Positions 43,911-50,868 of a stretch of 64,000 nucleotides of DNA are shown in pieces. Every line of letters begins with the position of its first letter. Within the stretch, counting starts at the first letter, position 1. The translations under genes and the position numbers were made by a program. Source of the stretch: Desulfobacterales bacterium (GTDB taxonomy: Bacteria; Desulfobacterota; Desulfobacteria; Desulfobacterales; UBA2245); assembly GCA_040771865.1 (NCBI GenBank), contig JAXGZF010000006.1, forward strand, positions 124,001 to 188,000, given 5' to 3'. The notes beneath the pieces were generated by a model. That model searched no databases and was not told the origin of the DNA. It saw only the letters and a list, made by a program, of their open reading frames with translations.

Positions 43911-45896
43911 TTAGAACAGCTGAAGCCGATTTCGGTAAGCGTCGATCACGACATCGGGATCTCCGGTGATGATGATGTTGTCCGCGATCCATTCGGGTGC
44001 GCGGCGGGACCGGATCATCTCCAGAATCTGGGTGTGCAGCCCCCCCCAGTAATCTCCCTTTCCCTCGGTGTCAAAAAGAATCACCGGAACGCGGTCCAAA
44101 ATTGCAAGCTTCATATTGCACAGGGTAATGCCCAGTTCTTCCAGAGAGCCGATGCCGCCGATGTTGAATATGGGAAAAGAGGCCACCTCGAACCATTTCT
44201 GCCGGCTGTGGCGGCAGGTGGCTTGAAACACCTGACAGAAATCCACATCCGTGGTCATGGGCTGATCGGTAATATCCAGATAGTTGGCGCCGGACAGGAT
44301 TCCATGTTTTCTTGCCAGGGTGTTGACGTGCTCCATCACACCGCTGCCGCCGCCGGTAACGATGCCGATGTTCTGTCCCCAGTAGTCCACCAGTGCCTTA
44401 ATCAGTTCTTCCAGCCGCCGGACTCCTGCCTCTGAAAGTTCCAGGTTGGAACCGAAAAATGCAAACAGCATGGACCTGTGGAAGTCTGTCAGGCGTTCCG
44501 GCGCTACGAAATAGCCTTTGCCGTCGCGCATGGCATGAACCATCAGGCGGCTGTTCAGACGTGAAACCCAGAACACATCGATGCCGAAGTCATGATAATC
44601 CTGAAGCCGGTTGTGATCCAGCTGGGAAAGAAACTGGCCGTGCTCCCGGGAGGGCTCGAAAAAATAAAAAGATTCGATCTGGTTGGTTCCATTGCAGGCC
44701 AGATTGATGATATCCCGATGCTCGATGATATTGGGGAAATATTTCAGCGCCAGACTGACCGATTCGCCGTTAAGCGCCCTGGCGATTTTGGATGTGGCAA
44801 ATACCTGAGCGCAGGAACTGTTGCGTGTGAAAATCCGTCGCTGAAGCGCGCAGACCGGCTGGCTGACCGTACATTGTTCGTCCGGGCCGTTCACATATAT
44901 CTCGGCTTTTGCCAGGGCCTTGGGCTGAGGGCGAACGATGGCCGCCGGCTTTGCCAGAAAGGGGCAGGTATCGGATTTGACCTCGCTCAGGCGATTTTCA
45001 AACCAGCGCATCTCATCGTATGTATAGGTCGGCGCGTTGCTGAATGTGTTTTCTCCTACATCAAGGAATTCGGGCTTCGGCGCCCGATAAATTCTGGCCG
45101 AAATGAGCGGATTGACGATGGGATGTCTGCTCCGGTTCACGATTTCCAGATAGATTCCGATTCCTCGTGTTTTGATCGGATCCAGAATGGTTGCCGGAAG
45201 ATGCCGGCCGAGTTCGGATCCGGCCTGAAGCACGACGTAATGTTCATTGAGAAACATGGAACAGGTGGTGATTACCCCCTGCCCCGGAGGAATGATCAGC
45301 GCCGATACCTTTTCCTTGATCTGATAGCGGTTGAGAATTTCCCGGCCGTTTTCCTTGAAAAGAATTCGGCCCAATATTTCCTGGCTCAGAGGCTCCCTGA
45401 GCTTGCATACCGCCCGGTGAGGCGCAATCAGAATGCTTCCGTCGCTGGAAATCGTCGTGGATGCAGGCAGCTTGAGCTGGGCCCGTTCAATGGCCTCAAG
45501 AACCTCATCGGAGGTCAACATGGCCTCCGGATCGCAGAACACCAGGCGGCCTACGGCAAGACCGGTGGTAAAAAAATCCTTGAACGCATACAGACCCGGG
45601 TAACCCGGGATTTCCGACGAGGCTGTCAGCGTCAGGGTCAGAATGTCCTTCTCAAGGCAGTTCGTTTGGGGAGATTGACATTCGATCTGGATTCCCAGCC
45701 GGGCGATTCGCGACCTTTCGCTGAAGATCAGATTCTCAGGCTGCGTCTTGAGCCTGTGGATCAGAATTTCTGAAACCCTGAAGGCCGTTCGGAAGGTGAT
45801 GGTTTCCGTATTGGATTCCAAAACCTCGGTGATAATTCCGTCCTCGGACTGGAGCAGGCCTCGAAACAGGGAATCTTCCATGGATTTTTTCAACAT
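43911..45896 (-). CDS. Large multidomain LOG (SLOG) family protein
   Basis: C-terminal FFGS, VTGGGSGVME, RQ and GGIGSLEE (PGGxGTxxE-like) motifs; about 470-aa N-terminal extension. Confidence 0.85.
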   Translation of the reverse strand: MLKKSMEDSLFRGLLQSEDGIITEVLESNTETITFRTAFRVSEILIHRLKTQPENLIFSERSRIARLGIQIECQSPQTNCLEKDILTLTLTASSEIPGYPGLYAFKDFFTTGLAVGRLVFCDPEAMLTSDEVLEAIERAQLKLPASTTISSDGSILIAPHRAVCKLREPLSQEILGRILFKENGREILNRYQIKEKVSALIIPPGQGVITTCSMFLNEHYVVLQAGSELGRHLPATILDPIKTRGIGIYLEIVNRSRHPIVNPLISARIYRAPKPEFLDVGENTFSNAPTYTYDEMRWFENRLSEVKSDTCPFLAKPAAIVRPQPKALAKAEIYVNGPDEQCTVSQPVCALQRRIFTRNSSCAQVFATSKIARALNGESVSLALKYFPNIIEHRDIINLACNGTNQIESFYFFEPSREHGQFLSQLDHNRLQDYHDFGIDVFWVSRLNSRLMVHAMRDGKGYFVAPERLTDFHRSMLFAFFGSNLELSEAGVRRLEELIKALVDYWGQNIGIVTGGGSGVMEHVNTLARKHGILSGANYLDITDQPMTTDVDFCQVFQATCRHSRQKWFEVASFPIFNIGGIGSLEELGITLCNMKLAILDRVPVILFDTEGKGDYWGGLHTQILEMIRSRRAPEWIADNIIITGDPDVVIDAYRNRLQLF

Positions 45897-46167
45897 TTAT
45901 ACTCTCCCGGTGAAACCGATTTGAAATGGAATGGCGCCGTTCGACGGTGATCGTAAAAATATACAAGAAGCAAAAACCATGTCAAGATTGTTGGGTATTT
46001 TGATGCCTGATCGAGAATTAACCGTTGCCGCTATCTGATCAATTTTCATAACATGCAGCATCAGGGCTCCTTCGGTTTTGGGAAATCCGTTCCGGAAGGC
46101 AAAATTATCAGAATTTTTCAAAACGGCTCATGAATTCACCCGGAGATTCAAGAAGAAAGATAAATTC

Positions 46168-46198
46168 TTGACAAACAGAAATTTCTTTGATTATTAAT
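46168..46198 (+). promoter_or_regulatory. Putative sigma70 promoter upstream of leader peptide
   Basis: TTGACA at 46168, AT-rich -10 region (tattaat) 18 nt later. Confidence 0.55.
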
Positions 46199-46239
46199 CT
46201 AAAAAATTAATCGGCATTACACCGGAGATTCAGCGAGTC

Positions 46240-46287
46240 ATGAATGCGGAAAGGCAAAAATACTACTGGTGGTGGCGCGGCTTCTGA
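46240..46287 (+). CDS. Trp-rich attenuator leader peptide MNAERQKYYWWWRGF
   Basis: ATG AAT GCG GAA AGG CAA AAA TAC TAC TGG TGG TGG CGC GGC TTC TGA; GGAG upstream; followed by hairpins and a terminator. Confidence 0.85.
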   Translation: MNAERQKYYWWWRGF

Positions 46288-46372
46288 GGCTGCTCACCCC
46301 TGAACAAAATATTCAGAGCCGTGGGCGGTTTCGCAATGCAAGGCGGAAGCAGCTTACGGCTTTTTCGGTTTC

Positions 46373-46405
46373 AAGGCCGGGGTTCTTCTGACCCGGCCTT
46401 TTTTT
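46373..46405 (+). terminator. Attenuator (intrinsic terminator) before dctP
   Basis: aaggccggg...cccggcctt then ttttt, about 40 nt before the dctP start. Confidence 0.85.
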
Positions 46406-46443
46406 ATGGTTATGGACGTCAACCGCTTTTAAGGAGGATTGTT

Positions 46444-47469
46444 ATGAAACAAAATGCTTTCAGAATGACATTCGTACTGCTGGCGGCCATCTTCGCATGC
46501 ACACTGCTGCCGCAAACACCTGTCCACGCGGAAACCATCAGTCTGAGCTACGCGAACTTCCCCGCAGCAACCACATTTCCCTGCGTTCAGATGGAACGAT
46601 GGAAAACAGAGGTCGAGAAGCGAACCGCAGGAAAGGTCGTCATCAATACCTTTCCCGGCGGCACGCTTCTGGACGCCAAGGACATGATGGACGGCGTTAT
46701 TGCCGGTCAGGCCGATATCGGAAATCTGTGTATGGCCTACCAGCCCGGCCGGTTTGTTCTGACCAACGCCATGGGTCTGCCCCTGGGCGTGCCCAACGCC
46801 AGGGTCGGGAGCCTTGTGCTCTGGGATCTTTATCAGAAATACAATCCTGAAGCATTTTCCAAGGTCAAGGTGCTGACTATGTTCACCACGGCTCCTTCGA
46901 ACATCATGTCCCGAAAACCGGTCCAAAGCCTGGCGGACTTAAAAGGCATGAATATTCGGGCATCCGGAGGCGCCGCTGAAATTATCAAGCTCTGGGGCGC
47001 GAATCAGGTGGGCATGCCCATGTCGTCCACCCCCGAAGCGCTTCAGCGGGGGGTGGTTCAGGGACTGTTTTCTTCTCTGGAAGTCATGAAGGATTACCAG
47101 TTCGCCGAGGTTTGCCGTTATGTCACCCTGACCGAGACGGTGGTGTATCCATTTGCCGTGGTCATGAATCTGGAACGCTGGAATTCACTGCCCCCCGAAA
47201 TTCAGAAGGTCATGAACGACCTTTCTGTAGAGCAGTCCGAATGGACCGGAACCTACATGGACGATCATGTCCGGGAAGCGGTCGAGTGGTCCAAAAAGGA
47301 GCACCAGGTCGTGTTTACGAAGTTTTCCGAAGCGGATCAGGCCCAAAGCCAGTCGCTGCTCACGCCCATGGTCAACACCTGGATTCAGGAAGCCCAGGCC
47401 AAAGGGATTCCCGGGCAGGCGGTTGTCGATGATATTCATGCGCTGATTCAAAAATACAATGCCAAGTAA
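46444..47469 (+). CDS. dctP: TRAP transporter substrate-binding protein
   Basis: Signal peptide, FPGGTLL, DLKGMNIRASG (conserved Arg) and ALQRGVV; AAGGAGG RBS. Confidence 0.93.
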   Translation: MKQNAFRMTFVLLAAIFACTLLPQTPVHAETISLSYANFPAATTFPCVQMERWKTEVEKRTAGKVVINTFPGGTLLDAKDMMDGVIAGQADIGNLCMAYQPGRFVLTNAMGLPLGVPNARVGSLVLWDLYQKYNPEAFSKVKVLTMFTTAPSNIMSRKPVQSLADLKGMNIRASGGAAEIIKLWGANQVGMPMSSTPEALQRGVVQGLFSSLEVMKDYQFAEVCRYVTLTETVVYPFAVVMNLERWNSLPPEIQKVMNDLSVEQSEWTGTYMDDHVREAVEWSKKEHQVVFTKFSEADQAQSQSLLTPMVNTWIQEAQAKGIPGQAVVDDIHALIQKYNAK

Positions 47470-47502
47470 ACGCAACGCCCATCTTGAATGGGTTGAAAAT
47501 TC

Positions 47503-48009
47503 ATGGAAATTTCAATGATTGCCTTTCTGGATAAAATCAATGCTCACGCCAACCGCATTCTGGTTTTTATCGGCGGCGCCTGTCTGGTCGGCATGATCGT
47601 TCTGACATGCGCCAATATTCTGTTCCGGTTGACCTGGGTCCCCATTCAGGGCGCTTTTGAATTGATGGGCCTTTTCGGCGCCGTGGTCACGGCCTTTGCC
47701 CTGGGGCCGACCCAGCGCAAAAGAGGCCATGTATGCGCCGATGTGCTGGTCAATACATTTCCCGTAAATATTCAAAGAATGCTCCGTGCGCTGGCGAATC
47801 TGATCGGTATGGCATTTTTTGCGATCCTTGGCCGGCAGGTCGTCAAAATCGGCGTCATCCTTTTCTCCAGCGGCGAGGTGACGGAAACGCTGCGCATTAT
47901 TTACTATCCCTTCACCTTTGCCGTGGCTCTGGGATGTGCGGATATGATGCTGGTCCTGTTCACGGATTTTATCAAGGAGGTTTTACCTGACAAGGAAGGT
48001 GGCCGATGA
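47503..48009 (+). CDS. dctQ: TRAP transporter small permease
   Basis: Four TM segments, GH..DV motif; lies between dctP and dctM. Confidence 0.9.
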   Translation: MEISMIAFLDKINAHANRILVFIGGACLVGMIVLTCANILFRLTWVPIQGAFELMGLFGAVVTAFALGPTQRKRGHVCADVLVNTFPVNIQRMLRALANLIGMAFFAILGRQVVKIGVILFSSGEVTETLRIIYYPFTFAVALGCADMMLVLFTDFIKEVLPDKEGGR

Positions 48010-49310
48010 GTCTGGCGGCGATCGGCATTCTTGGCATTCTGGCGCTGCTGGCTGCGATATTTTTACTGGCGGTTCCGGTCGGATTGGCCATGGGCGTTGT
48101 CGGTTTTCTGGGGTTTTCCTATATCGTGAGCTTTAAGGCGAGCATCAACATGACCGGATCGGCGATCTGGTCCACCTTTTCCCATTATGGATTCACCGTC
48201 ATACCCATGTTTATCTTCATGGGACAGATCGCCTACTATTCCGGGGTCAACGAGAAGCTTTACAGATGCGCCCACAAATGGGTCGGCCATATCCGGGGAG
48301 GCATTGCCATGGCTACGGTGCTCGCCTGCGCCGCCTTTTCCGCCATATGCGGATCCAACGCCGCCACCGCCGCCACCATGTCGACCGTGGCCCTGCCTGA
48401 AATGAAAAAATACCGGTACAATCCGAAACTGAGCACCGGATCGGTTGCCTGCGGATCCACGCTGGGCGTGGTGATACCCCCCAGCGTGGTTCTGATCGTC
48501 ATCGGGCTGTCGACCGAGCAGTCCATCGCCAGGCTGTTTTACGGAGGCGTCAGCGCCGGTCTTGTTCTGGCGGCCTTGCTGATGATCACGATCTGGTGTC
48601 TGTGCTGTTTCTACCCGGAATGGGGTCCGGTTGCCCCTCCCAGTTCCTGGAAGGAGAAGATCCGGTCCCTTGCCGGCGCCTATGAAATGGCTGTTCTGTT
48701 TCTGCTGGTCATGCTCGGGTTGTATACCGGCATTTTTACTCCATCAGAAGCCGGCGCGGCGGGTGCATTTCTGGCGGTTTGCATTACCGCGTTTCAGGGA
48801 AAACTGACATGGAAGGTGTTTTCCGCCGCCGTCAACGATACGCTGAGAATCTCGTGCATGGTGATCTTCATCGTGACAGGGGCCGTGATCTTCGGCCGCT
48901 TTCTGGCCGTGACCCGCGTGCCTTACGACATTGCCTCATGGGTGGTGGGGCTTCCCTTTTCCAAGACCGCCATCATGCTGGTAATTTTCGGCATTTACAT
49001 TCTGGGCGGAGCGATCATGGATGCGCTGGCCCTTTTGATGATTACCATTCCGATCTTTTTTCCCGTCGCCGTCGAGCTCGGATATGATCCGCTCTGGTTT
49101 GCCGTGGTCATCACGGTGATCACGACCCTGGGCGCCGTCACGCCGCCGGTGGGCGCCACCACCTATGTGGTTGCCGCCATGGCCAGGGACGTTTCTCTGG
49201 AAGCGGTTTTCCGCGGAGTGGCATTCTTTTTGCCGGCCTATATCCTGTGCATCCTTTTGTTGATGGCCTTTCCCTGGCTGATAACCTTTTTACCGGCTCT
49301 CATGCATTGA
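48006..49310 (+). CDS. dctM: TRAP transporter large permease
   Basis: IPMFIFMG, FSAICGSNAATAA, GVVIPPS, FTPSEAGA and TPPVG motifs. Confidence 0.95.
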   Translation: MSLAAIGILGILALLAAIFLLAVPVGLAMGVVGFLGFSYIVSFKASINMTGSAIWSTFSHYGFTVIPMFIFMGQIAYYSGVNEKLYRCAHKWVGHIRGGIAMATVLACAAFSAICGSNAATAATMSTVALPEMKKYRYNPKLSTGSVACGSTLGVVIPPSVVLIVIGLSTEQSIARLFYGGVSAGLVLAALLMITIWCLCCFYPEWGPVAPPSSWKEKIRSLAGAYEMAVLFLLVMLGLYTGIFTPSEAGAAGAFLAVCITAFQGKLTWKVFSAAVNDTLRISCMVIFIVTGAVIFGRFLAVTRVPYDIASWVVGLPFSKTAIMLVIFGIYILGGAIMDALALLMITIPIFFPVAVELGYDPLWFAVVITVITTLGAVTPPVGATTYVVAAMARDVSLEAVFRGVAFFLPAYILCILLLMAFPWLITFLPALMH

Positions 49311-49331
49311 AAGCCCGCATTAAGGTATGAG

Positions 49332-50363
49332 ATGATGCGCTTCAGGGAAGAGACTGAAAACGCGGGCCGGAAATCGGTTTTCGACGTTCTGACGCCGGAA
49401 TTGATTTTCCGGTCCGTGGAAAAAGCAACCGGAAAAGTCCTCAGCGGACTGATCTATCCGCTTCCCAGTTATATCAACCGGGTCTACGAGCTACAGGATG
49501 AGGACAGGGGCCGGCTGATCGCCAAGTATTACCGGCCGGGCCGGTGGACGCGGGCCGCCTTGCAGGAAGAACACGATTTTGTGCTGGACTGCGCGGCGGA
49601 CGAGATACCCGTGGTGCCGCCGATTCGCCTTTTAAACGGAAGGACTCTCGACGAGGTCGAGGGAGTGTATTTTGCCGTTTATCCGAAACGGCTCGGCCGG
49701 CAGTTTGAAATTACCTGCGATGAGGACTGGACCCGGGTCGGAAGGCTTGCGGCCAGGATTCACGTCGCCGGCGCAAGGCGCAAAGCCGAGCATAGAGTGC
49801 GCCTGGATCCGAAAGTCTCGACGGCGGAAGACATCCGGCTGCTGACCAGCGGCGATCTGATGCCGCCTCAGATGAAGGCCTCGTTTCTGGATATCGGCAA
49901 CGGAATTCTCGATGAAATCTCGGAACTTTTTTCCCGTTCGGAGTTCATCCGGCTTCACGGGGACTGCCACCGGGGCAATCTTCTGGAACATCCCGACGAG
50001 GGTCTGCGAATCATCGATTTTGACGATATGATGATCGGTCCTCCGATTCAGGACATCTGGCTGCTGCTGCCTTCCCGGGCTCAGGATTGCCGCCGGGAGA
50101 TCGACCTGATTCTCAAGGGCTACGAACAGTTCCGGGCATTTGATGCGACCAGCCTTCGGCTCATCGAACCGCTGCGGGCCATGCGCATGATCTATTTTCT
50201 GGCCTGGTGCGGCCGTCAGAAGGACGACTACCGGTTCCGGGAAACTTTTCCGGACTGGGGAAAACCGGGTTTCTGGCAGCGGGAAATTGCGGATCTGACC
50301 CGCCAGCTTCAGGTGATTCAGGCGGAAAAACGGCTTCGGAAAGCCGTGTTATCGTTTTCCTGA
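49332..50363 (+). CDS. srkA: SrkA/RdoA-like serine/threonine kinase (APH family)
   Basis: SYINRVY, KYYRPGRW, EEH, LHGDCHRGN, DFDD, QDIW and FPDWG motifs. Confidence 0.88.
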   Translation: MMRFREETENAGRKSVFDVLTPELIFRSVEKATGKVLSGLIYPLPSYINRVYELQDEDRGRLIAKYYRPGRWTRAALQEEHDFVLDCAADEIPVVPPIRLLNGRTLDEVEGVYFAVYPKRLGRQFEITCDEDWTRVGRLAARIHVAGARRKAEHRVRLDPKVSTAEDIRLLTSGDLMPPQMKASFLDIGNGILDEISELFSRSEFIRLHGDCHRGNLLEHPDEGLRIIDFDDMMIGPPIQDIWLLLPSRAQDCRREIDLILKGYEQFRAFDATSLRLIEPLRAMRMIYFLAWCGRQKDDYRFRETFPDWGKPGFWQREIADLTRQLQVIQAEKRLRKAVLSFS

Positions 50364-50379
50364 GCGCTTGATTCGGCAA

Positions 50380-50868
50380 TCATGCGCCTTGAAATTCCAG
50401 CCTCAGGCTCTCATAAAGGACAATCCCGACAGCCGTCGAAAGGTTCAGGCACCGGATCGCATCACGGATCGGAATCCGGTAGGTGCAGGACGCGTACCGG
50501 TCGAGAATTCCGGCGGGAATGCCCCTGGTTTCGGATCCGAACACCAGAAAAAGGCGATTTACGCGGGGAAGATTCCAGAAGAGCTTTTTTCCGCTTTTGG
50601 TGATCAGCGCCACCTCTTCGGGCTTCAGGGCAAAAGCCTGGGTCAATTCGCTGAAGTCCTCCCATACGCAGAGCTTGACCCTGGGCCAGTAATCCAGGCC
50701 GGCCCGCTTGACCTGACGGCTTTCCAGGGAAAAACCCAGCGGCTTGATCAGATGCAGAAAAACACCGGCGCCCAGACAGGTCCGGCCGATGTTTCCCGTA
50801 TTCCAGTGCACCTCCGGGGCGATGAGGACCACATGACGCTGAAGATTCGGGCAAGCATTTTCCTTCAT
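50380..50868 (-). CDS. trmL: tRNA (cytidine/uridine-34 2'-O)-methyltransferase
   Basis: PEVHWNTGNIGRTC, KRAGLDYW, FGSETRG and RCLNLS motifs. Confidence 0.93.
   Translation of the reverse strand: MKENACPNLQRHVVLIAPEVHWNTGNIGRTCLGAGVFLHLIKPLGFSLESRQVKRAGLDYWPRVKLCVWEDFSELTQAFALKPEEVALITKSGKKLFWNLPRVNRLFLVFGSETRGIPAGILDRYASCTYRIPIRDAIRCLNLSTAVGIVLYESLRLEFQGA

Follow-up and report, generated by a model that had tools for sequence, protein, structure and literature searches.

Upstream of the dctPQM genes of a Desulfobacterales bacterium, which encode a tripartite ATP-independent periplasmic (TRAP) transporter, we identified a probable trp-type, ribosome-mediated transcription attenuator. The genes lie in a window of 64,000 nucleotides (nt) of assembly GCA_040771865.1 (contig JAXGZF010000006.1, positions 124,001 to 188,000), and all coordinates given below without a locus or contig name are window positions on the + strand. 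On the basis of in silico analysis, we propose that the switch makes dctPQM a tryptophan-starvation-induced importer of indole acids within a tryptophan-supply regulon, a reading to which we assign a probability of about 70%. The elements observed in a preliminary description of the sequence are real. Its core reading, that an attenuator with Trp codons controls a TRAP importer of aromatic or indole acids, is supported by ribosome-masked folds, by sequence constraint and by homologous attenuators at iorA, trpE and TrpB2 genes.

The leader open reading frame (ORF) spans 46240-46287 and encodes MNAERQKYYWWWRGF* in 15 codons, from an ATG at 46240 to a TGA at 46285-46287. It contains two tyrosine codons (TAC TAC, 46261-46266) followed by three tandem Trp codons (TGG TGG TGG, 46267-46275), the putative regulatory codons, all as the preliminary description had them. 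A -35 hexamer, TTGACA, is located at 46168-46173 and is the same in the sister genome. The candidate -10 element at 46191-46197 is weak and can be read as TTATTA with a 17-nt spacer or as TATTAA with an 18-nt spacer, so that the promoter claimed earlier holds for its perfect -35 hexamer and is doubtful for its -10. The dctP start codon at 46444 is preceded by a strong ribosome-binding site, AAGGAGG.

The leader RNA can form a chain of five competing, overlapping helices (1:2, 2:3, 3:4, 4:5 and 5:6) that includes two tandem intrinsic terminators. With z-scores expressing folding energy relative to dinucleotide shuffles, the whole leader folds at z = -2.9, a value reached by 1 of 200 shuffles. 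Region 1 (46271-46283) covers the last Trp codons and the RGF codons and is the 5' arm of helix 1:2 (46271-46298; -14.5 kcal/mol, z -2.2), as determined by hairpin folding. Region 2 (46285-46298), delimited by masked folds, pairs either with region 1 or, as an antiterminator, with region 3; this helix 2:3 (46285-46297 with 46321-46333; -20.9 kcal/mol, z -3.2) encloses a small predicted hairpin, B (46300-46316). Region 3 (46317-46333) can instead pair with region 4 (46344-46361), and the resulting helix 3:4, followed by T5, constitutes terminator 1 (46317-46365; -25.4 kcal/mol, z -4.65). A second antiterminator, helix 4:5 (46344-46363 with 46373-46390; -18.4 kcal/mol, z -3.0), joins the 3' arm of terminator 1 to the 5' arm and loop of terminator 2. 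The latter consists of helix 5:6 (46373-46381 with 46392-46400) and T7, ending at 46405 (-17.6 kcal/mol, z -3.5), and was also matched by a terminator scan.

Most of the pairings proposed in the preliminary description recur in these folds. Its stem over the Trp codons is the hairpin 46271-46298, its agccgtgggc/gcttacggct pairing is the hairpin 46317-46361 that T5 follows, its cggcttt/aaggccg pairing is part of the longer helix 4:5, and its terminator aaggccggg/cccggcc-T7 is helix 5:6. The pairing of cggcttctga with tcagagccg occurs in no minimum-energy fold, and helix 2:3 was found instead.

We evaluated the switch by ribosome-masked folding, in which the nascent RNA is folded with the bases under the ribosome kept unpaired. 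When the A site is placed on the first, second or third Trp codon, the minimum-energy fold is the 2:3 helix at about -21 kcal/mol; a ribosome at the stop codon makes 2:3 impossible (-7.6 kcal/mol), and nascent RNA carrying no ribosome forms 1:2. With 2:3 enforced and the transcript ending at 46391, the minimum-energy fold is 4:5, which is thus reached before the 3' arm of terminator 2 exists. The masked folds give the logic expected of an attenuator with mutually exclusive pairings, as had been suggested, and in these models that logic is the classical one of the trp attenuator, extended by a relay to a second terminator. Judged by its position, a stall on the YY or F codons should leave termination in place. 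The covariance model of the known family, RF00513 (Trp_leader), had no match in 45900-46500 at E-values up to 10, and no relevant Rfam family was found in the leader. Among 16 related loci, likewise, no relevant family was found and RF00513 had no match at its gathering score. The leader would therefore work like Trp_leader while not being a member of RF00513.

Folding and comparison together suggest the following sequence of events. Transcription would start downstream of the TTGACA promoter, and the 15-codon leader would be translated. When charged tRNA-Trp is plentiful, the ribosome would reach the stop codon and cover region 2 (46285-46298), allowing 3:4 with T5, and then 5:6 with T7, to form, and transcription would end before dctP. 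When charged tRNA-Trp is scarce, a ribosome stalled on TGG TGG TGG would cover region 1, and region 2 would pair with region 3 (46285-46297 with 46321-46333). This pairing would block terminator 1, whose free 3' arm could then pair with the 5' arm of terminator 2 (46344-46363 with 46373-46390); with terminator 2 also blocked, RNA polymerase would read into dctPQM. If the leader is not translated at all, 1:2 would form and both terminators would act. Terminator 2 lies 37 nt from dctP and the gene upstream of the leader is on the opposite strand, so dctPQM must be transcribed through the leader.

The region is highly conserved within the genus. Between the leader ATG and the dctP ATG (204 nt), comparison with the sister genome shows 2 substitutions and 2 indels, whereas 37 of 342 third codon positions of dctP differ; on this comparison, the leader and its RNA are constrained more strongly than synonymous sites. 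The peptide MNAERQKYYWWWRGF is identical in the compared loci L001/L026, L056, L057 and L073, and the sole change seen is a synonymous TTC>TTT. Three natural variants of region 2 keep both helix 1:2 (-14.5, -13.7 and -15.6 kcal/mol) and helix 2:3 (-20.9, -19.3 and -19.6 kcal/mol), and the substitution C46378T found in relatives keeps a G-U pair in terminator 2.

In first scans, the sister species and three near-identical metagenome contigs were the only places where a leader was found directly upstream of dctP. Outside the genus, no W-rich upstream ORF (uORF) directly precedes dctP in loci L002-L018 (17), in L027-L054 (28) or in 14 of the 15 metagenome loci, the remaining one (L068) having no upstream sequence. 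This apparent lack of conservation proved to be an artefact, as the scanned DNA was coding and dctP there follows iorB or a ligase gene. The preliminary description had proposed searching for W-rich uORFs at orthologous dctP genes, and these came to light once the starts of iorA operons were examined.

Elsewhere in the Desulfobacterales, the orthologue of dctP belongs to an operon of the form iorA-iorB-(PaaK-like ligase)-dctPQM, which starts with iorA and often includes the ligase gene; iorAB encode indolepyruvate:ferredoxin oxidoreductase (IOR). A W-rich leader, MKFLLWFWWWQATG..., is located upstream of iorA in L002-L004, and in L065 the RNA is visibly homologous to the leader in the window. 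For a wider count, we took the 4.8 kb upstream of all 58 + strand dctP matches that had room for it. Among 87 upstream stretches of orthologous operons, 12 contain a WWW uORF on the gene strand and 0 contain one on the reverse complement, and TGGTGGTGG occurred 13 times on the gene strand of these stretches and 0 times on the reverse complement. Across the 13 aligned sequences, the position of the W run just 5' of region 2 is constant and the rest of the peptide varies, making the W run the only conserved feature of the leader peptides.

Comparison across this 13-sequence family also supports helices 2:3 and 3:4, as counted on structures taken from the window sequence. In helix 2:3, 92.3% of cells are paired; sliding the partner lowers this to 40-49%. 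For 3:4, pairing in the main stem amounts to 88% and three pairs have both bases changed; a covariation score as high as the 0.306 observed (0.258 in shuffles) was attained in 2 of 500 shuffles. In 1:2, the five outermost pairs (GGUGG/UCACC) are present without variation in 13/13 sequences. A covariance model built from the alignment of these iorA and dctP leaders, termed R1, matched 18 of the 58 sampled dctP-orthologue loci, always on the gene strand, and 9 of the 18 were outside its training set. Sixteen of these matches lie upstream of iorA, whose start is within the sampled sequence in 29 loci, and the other 2 directly precede dctP.

The promoter core CTTGACAAAC (window 46167-46176) is also found upstream of iorA in L002, L007 and L062, where TTGGATAA follows about 12 nt 3' of it. 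In L007 and L062, this promoter is present and the leader and attenuator are absent. In a second genus, the attenuator stands directly upstream of dctP (L125 4535-4656 and L146 4486-4606), with no iorA within 4.8 kb. The leader peptides of these two loci (..GWWWQNGREGSV.. and ..RWWWQDREEGSV..) are closer to those of trpE leaders (..WWWWNRREGSADG.. and ..WWWQARNEGFADD..) than the leader in the window is. Recruitment of the switch may have taken place repeatedly.

Extending the search to 151 genomes of the order, we found R1 matches at 66 places in 56 genomes, with exactly one place in the genome studied here. Among the 30 best matches, the gene downstream is iorA in 16, the PaaK-like ligase in 4, dctP in 2 (this genus only), TrpB2 in 6 and trpE in 2; of the 6 TrpB2 genes, 2 were scanned with NCBIfam and both exceeded the cut-offs. 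The 36 weaker matches, which were placed by coordinates and matched by eye, comprise 4 at iorA-dctP clusters, 13 at trpE, 1 near trpA and 18 unplaced. Independently of R1, a WW(W)(W) uORF was found in 15 of 30 trpE upstream regions in the order. The trpE leader of the sister genome, MNTLIHKGVQNWWWQARNEGFADDAL*, has two terminators, shows perfect 4:5 complementarity and behaves in the same way in masked folds, suggesting that a single type of Trp switch governs the IorAB-ligase-TRAP cluster as well as TrpB2 and de novo synthesis. Alignment of the window's leader with this trpE leader is confined to short stretches, and the two may or may not share an origin.

The preliminary description had also raised the possibility of Tyr or Phe sensing. 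The positions of the YY and F codons speak against it, for the reason given above, while the composition of the leaders speaks for it: a by-eye tally found F or Y at most 2 residues before or inside the W run in 13 of the 22 leaders that precede iorA, ligase, dctP or TrpB2 genes, compared with 1 of 16 trpE leaders, although the related genomes in this tally are not independent. The F and Y codons in the leaders of salvage operons are thus a hint that the switch may read the supply of Phe or Tyr too. Alternatively, the trait, which TrpB2 leaders share, may reflect common descent rather than Phe/Tyr sensing.

As described previously, the leader is followed by three consecutive genes with matches to the families of a TRAP system. 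These are dctP (46444-47469; Pfam DctP, E 1.8e-42), encoding the solute-binding protein, dctQ (47503-48009; Pfam DctQ), encoding the small membrane subunit, and dctM (48006-49310; Pfam DctM, E 7e-84), encoding the large membrane subunit. The DctP protein aligns over its full length with two proteins of the same family from Desulfovibrio, which belongs to another bacterial order: Desal_3247 (PDB: 4n6d; E 6e-121) and Dde_0634 (PDB: 4pgn, 4pgp and 4nap; about E 1e-95, with 4pgn at E 9.9e-96). Orthology to the Desulfovibrio TRAP binding protein crystallised with indole acids, to which the preliminary description pointed, is supported at the sequence level by these matches. The AlphaFold model of DctP is poor (predicted local distance difference test score 58.7, from a 9-row alignment), and the fold search run with it served only to name the nearest entries; the Desal_3247 and Dde_0634 entries came top, followed by aromatic-acid binders (TarP; coumarate, cinnamate and 4-hydroxyphenylacetate). 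R172 of DctP is invariant in 9/9 orthologues and aligns with an Arg of 4n6d and 4pgn; it is a candidate for the carboxylate-binding Arg of TRAP binding proteins. The ligand is presumably indole pyruvate in 4pgn and D-tryptophan in 4nap.

Published reports state that Dde_0634 binds indole-3-acetate (PMC9973260), that 4NAP contains a D-amino acid (PMC10443332) and that Vetting et al. 2015 found indole acids among the ligands of TRAP systems (PMC5812351). From its sequence, we place DctP in the aromatic/indole-acid clade, with a predicted ligand of that kind. Among the cargoes named in the preliminary description, an indole or aromatic acid is supported by the relatives of DctP and by the IOR and ligase context, and because of that context anthranilate is unlikely.

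The cargo imported by the induced TRAP system would be an indole carboxylic acid, for example indole-3-acetate or indole-3-pyruvate. An aryl-acid coenzyme A (CoA) ligase could then convert the acid to its CoA ester, IOR acting in the carboxylating direction could yield indolepyruvate, and a transaminase could form Trp. Such an anabolic salvage route is the simplest reading, because the operon partners are IorAB and the ligase and because the system would be induced on Trp shortage. The attenuator-bearing trpE operon, TrpB2 and iorAB-ligase-dctPQM would accordingly form one Trp-supply regulon in Desulfobacterales, and in this genus the switch would have been kept only at dctPQM and perhaps the kinase gene that follows it. 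The wider claim, that a Trp-attenuator regulon of the Desulfobacterales joins trpE synthesis, TrpB2 indole salvage and an undescribed bacterial salvage of indole acids via TRAP, ligase, IorAB and transamination, is tentative, and we rate it slightly below an even chance.

The Trp genes of this organism were surveyed in the assembly (G000). No match was found in it for trpA, indole-3-glycerol phosphate synthase or chorismate-binding enzymes, and canonical trpB and phosphoribosylanthranilate isomerase gave sub-threshold matches only. The sister genome has a full trpEGDCFBA operon (L055 = G001:C8:153000-172900), and neither this operon nor the 4.4 kb upstream of it has a match in the present assembly. 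The DNA just 3' of the sister trpA maps to G000 contig C9 from base 25. Trp auxotrophy of this organism does not follow from these results, as the absence of trp genes coincides with a contig break; it could be an assembly gap or a strain-variable island. A 237-aa ORF at G000:C11:66258-66764 (- strand) aligns with the TrpB2 model at positions 1-135 and 377-418 only and looks like a TrpB2 gene with an internal deletion. No attenuator match lies near this remnant, while the intact TrpB2 of relatives lies behind a Trp attenuator. A TrpD-family gene is located at G000:C5:99689-100699 (254 bits, over the curated cut-off).

RNA data were available as the assembled contigs of four metatranscriptome runs, which do not show ends, strand or level and may include carried-over DNA. 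Two contigs, from two runs of one study, cover the leader at 46224-46415 and 46232-46438 and carry the L056 variant, and further contigs cover parts of dctP, dctQ and dctM. None from the four runs was placed on 45900-46200 or 49222-50400.

Several points weigh against the proposal of a Trp-starvation-induced indole-acid importer. In equilibrium folds of the full leader, both terminators form under every ribosome mask. The terminators thus win at equilibrium in every state, and relief must be kinetic, as it is in E. coli trp. Helix 2:3 varies by one-sided changes only in the 13 sequences, and helix 1:2 has lineage-specific inner 7 pairs and no covariation; furthermore, deriving the counted structures from the window sequence favours them. 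The leader's Shine-Dalgarno sequence, GGAG at 46224-46227, is poorly spaced, with 12 nt between it and the ATG. At the leader, where the -35 is perfect and the -10 imperfect, the promoter scan made no + strand call, and the RNA-library contigs are weak evidence of expression. Regarding the cargo, DctP is only about half identical to Dde_0634, judged by eye from their alignment, and we know of no ligand assigned in the closest structure, 4n6d. In this genome, iorAB (contig C12) and the ligase gene (C5) are unlinked from dctPQM and lack a W leader, so the proposed coupling of the pathway in this organism is drawn from other genera.

An attenuator working as described could also serve an importer of Trp itself, or of broader aromatic acids such as phenylacetate, phenylpyruvate and 4-hydroxyphenylacetate. 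This would suit the separation of dctPQM from iorAB and the ligase gene in this genus, since direct Trp uptake needs no further enzymes. It would also suit the D-amino acid that PMC10443332 places in the 4NAP structure of the related Dde_0634, the coumarate, cinnamate and 4-hydroxyphenylacetate bound by the next-closest structures, and the F or Y codons that often flank the W run in the by-eye tally. We nevertheless consider such a cargo unlikely, as the conserved partners elsewhere are IorAB and an aryl-acid CoA ligase, which imported Trp would not need, and as the W run is the sole conserved feature of the leader peptide. More improbable still is a catabolic role for iorAB-ligase-dctPQM, in which imported aromatic 2-oxo acids or aryl acetates would be oxidised for energy and the leader would only tune expression, with no role in Trp supply. 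IOR is classically an oxidative decarboxylase of amino-acid fermentation, and Desulfobacterales degrade aromatic compounds. However, the switch would then turn on degradation of Trp-related compounds just when Trp is scarce, and the same RNA family precedes the Trp-making genes trpE and TrpB2.

The remaining alternatives concern the leader itself. If the uORF were untranslated, the region could be a small RNA gene or a protein- or metabolite-dependent terminator, and WWW would be incidental. The poor Shine-Dalgarno spacing and the missing Rfam match would be in keeping with this, and the RNA-library contigs lying just over the leader also fit a free-standing small RNA. Such an account is very improbable given the strand bias of WWW uORFs (12/87 against 0/87 on the reverse complement) and the constant position of the W run 5' of region 2 in 13 sequences whose peptides otherwise vary. 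A free-standing RNA is further opposed by the 37-nt gap to dctP and the opposite orientation of the upstream gene, which imply transcription of dctPQM through the leader. A short leader with Trp residues before a Trp-related operon also recalls TnaC, in which case a nascent W-rich peptide would sense free Trp and induce the operon at Trp abundance. We give this hardly any credence: TnaC depends on one critical Trp, on a C-terminal Pro that is conserved and on Rho for termination, whereas the present leader combines tandem Trp codons with two intrinsic terminators in a 1:2/2:3/3:4 topology, and its peptide is not conserved outside the W run.

The dctPQM genes are followed by a gene for an SrkA/YihE-like protein kinase (49332-50363; NCBIfam PRK11768, 332.7 bits with a cut-off of 194), which lies 21 nt 3' of dctM on the same strand. 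No hairpin with a T-run is visible in this 21-nt gap, and the kinase gene may be co-transcribed with dctPQM. The divergent gene upstream of the leader (43911-45896, - strand) encodes a 661-aa protein with only a weak C-terminal match to LOG / 'possible lysine decarboxylase'; no family was assigned to its remaining part.

The proposed switch resembles the E. coli trpL-type attenuator (RF00513) in its short leader ORF, its tandem Trp codons, the mutually exclusive 1:2/2:3/3:4 pairings and the intrinsic terminator, and a stall on the Trp codons would likewise lead to read-through. It differs in that the stop codon comes only 3 codons after the W run, in that two terminators stand in series and are joined by 4:5, and in that the regulated genes encode an importer (elsewhere together with iorAB and a ligase) instead of biosynthetic trp enzymes. 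The trpE leaders of the order (WWW or WWWW; for example, sister L055 4254-4334) also carry a switch of this kind, which in the sister genome includes two tandem terminators and 4:5. R1 matches these trpE leaders too, more weakly; they precede other genes, and their peptides are longer after the W run.

For the proposed pathway, PMC4162585, citing Porat et al., describes a parallel in Methanococcus maripaludis, where aryl acids feed aromatic amino-acid synthesis via IOR. The combination of external aryl acids with IOR has its counterpart in the IorAB and ligase that accompany dctPQM in other genera; the organism is an archaeon, whereas the bacterial pathway proposed here is predicted from gene context. 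To our knowledge, no TRAP importer or attenuator has been described for the archaeal route. Leader-peptide attenuation is usually tied to biosynthetic operons, according to PMC3766115. A literature search, which left most subscription journals out of its reach, found no paper joining a TRAP transporter, tryptophan, a leader peptide and attenuation. For indolepyruvate oxidoreductase together with Trp leader-peptide attenuation, it returned only what appears to be a review of microbial Trp metabolites and immunity. The mechanism is thus of a known kind, while its target and regulon appear to be undescribed in the literature searched.

These results would assign a physiological role to TRAP importers that form an orphan group and have a solved relative able to bind auxin-like indole acids. 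They point to an anabolic bacterial indolepyruvate oxidoreductase, by which Trp may be made from scavenged indole acids in anaerobic sediments and digesters, and they would carry leader-peptide attenuation over to a regulon of uptake and salvage. The relay through two terminators (1:2, 2:3, 3:4, 4:5 and 5:6) would represent a compact and testable design for such control.

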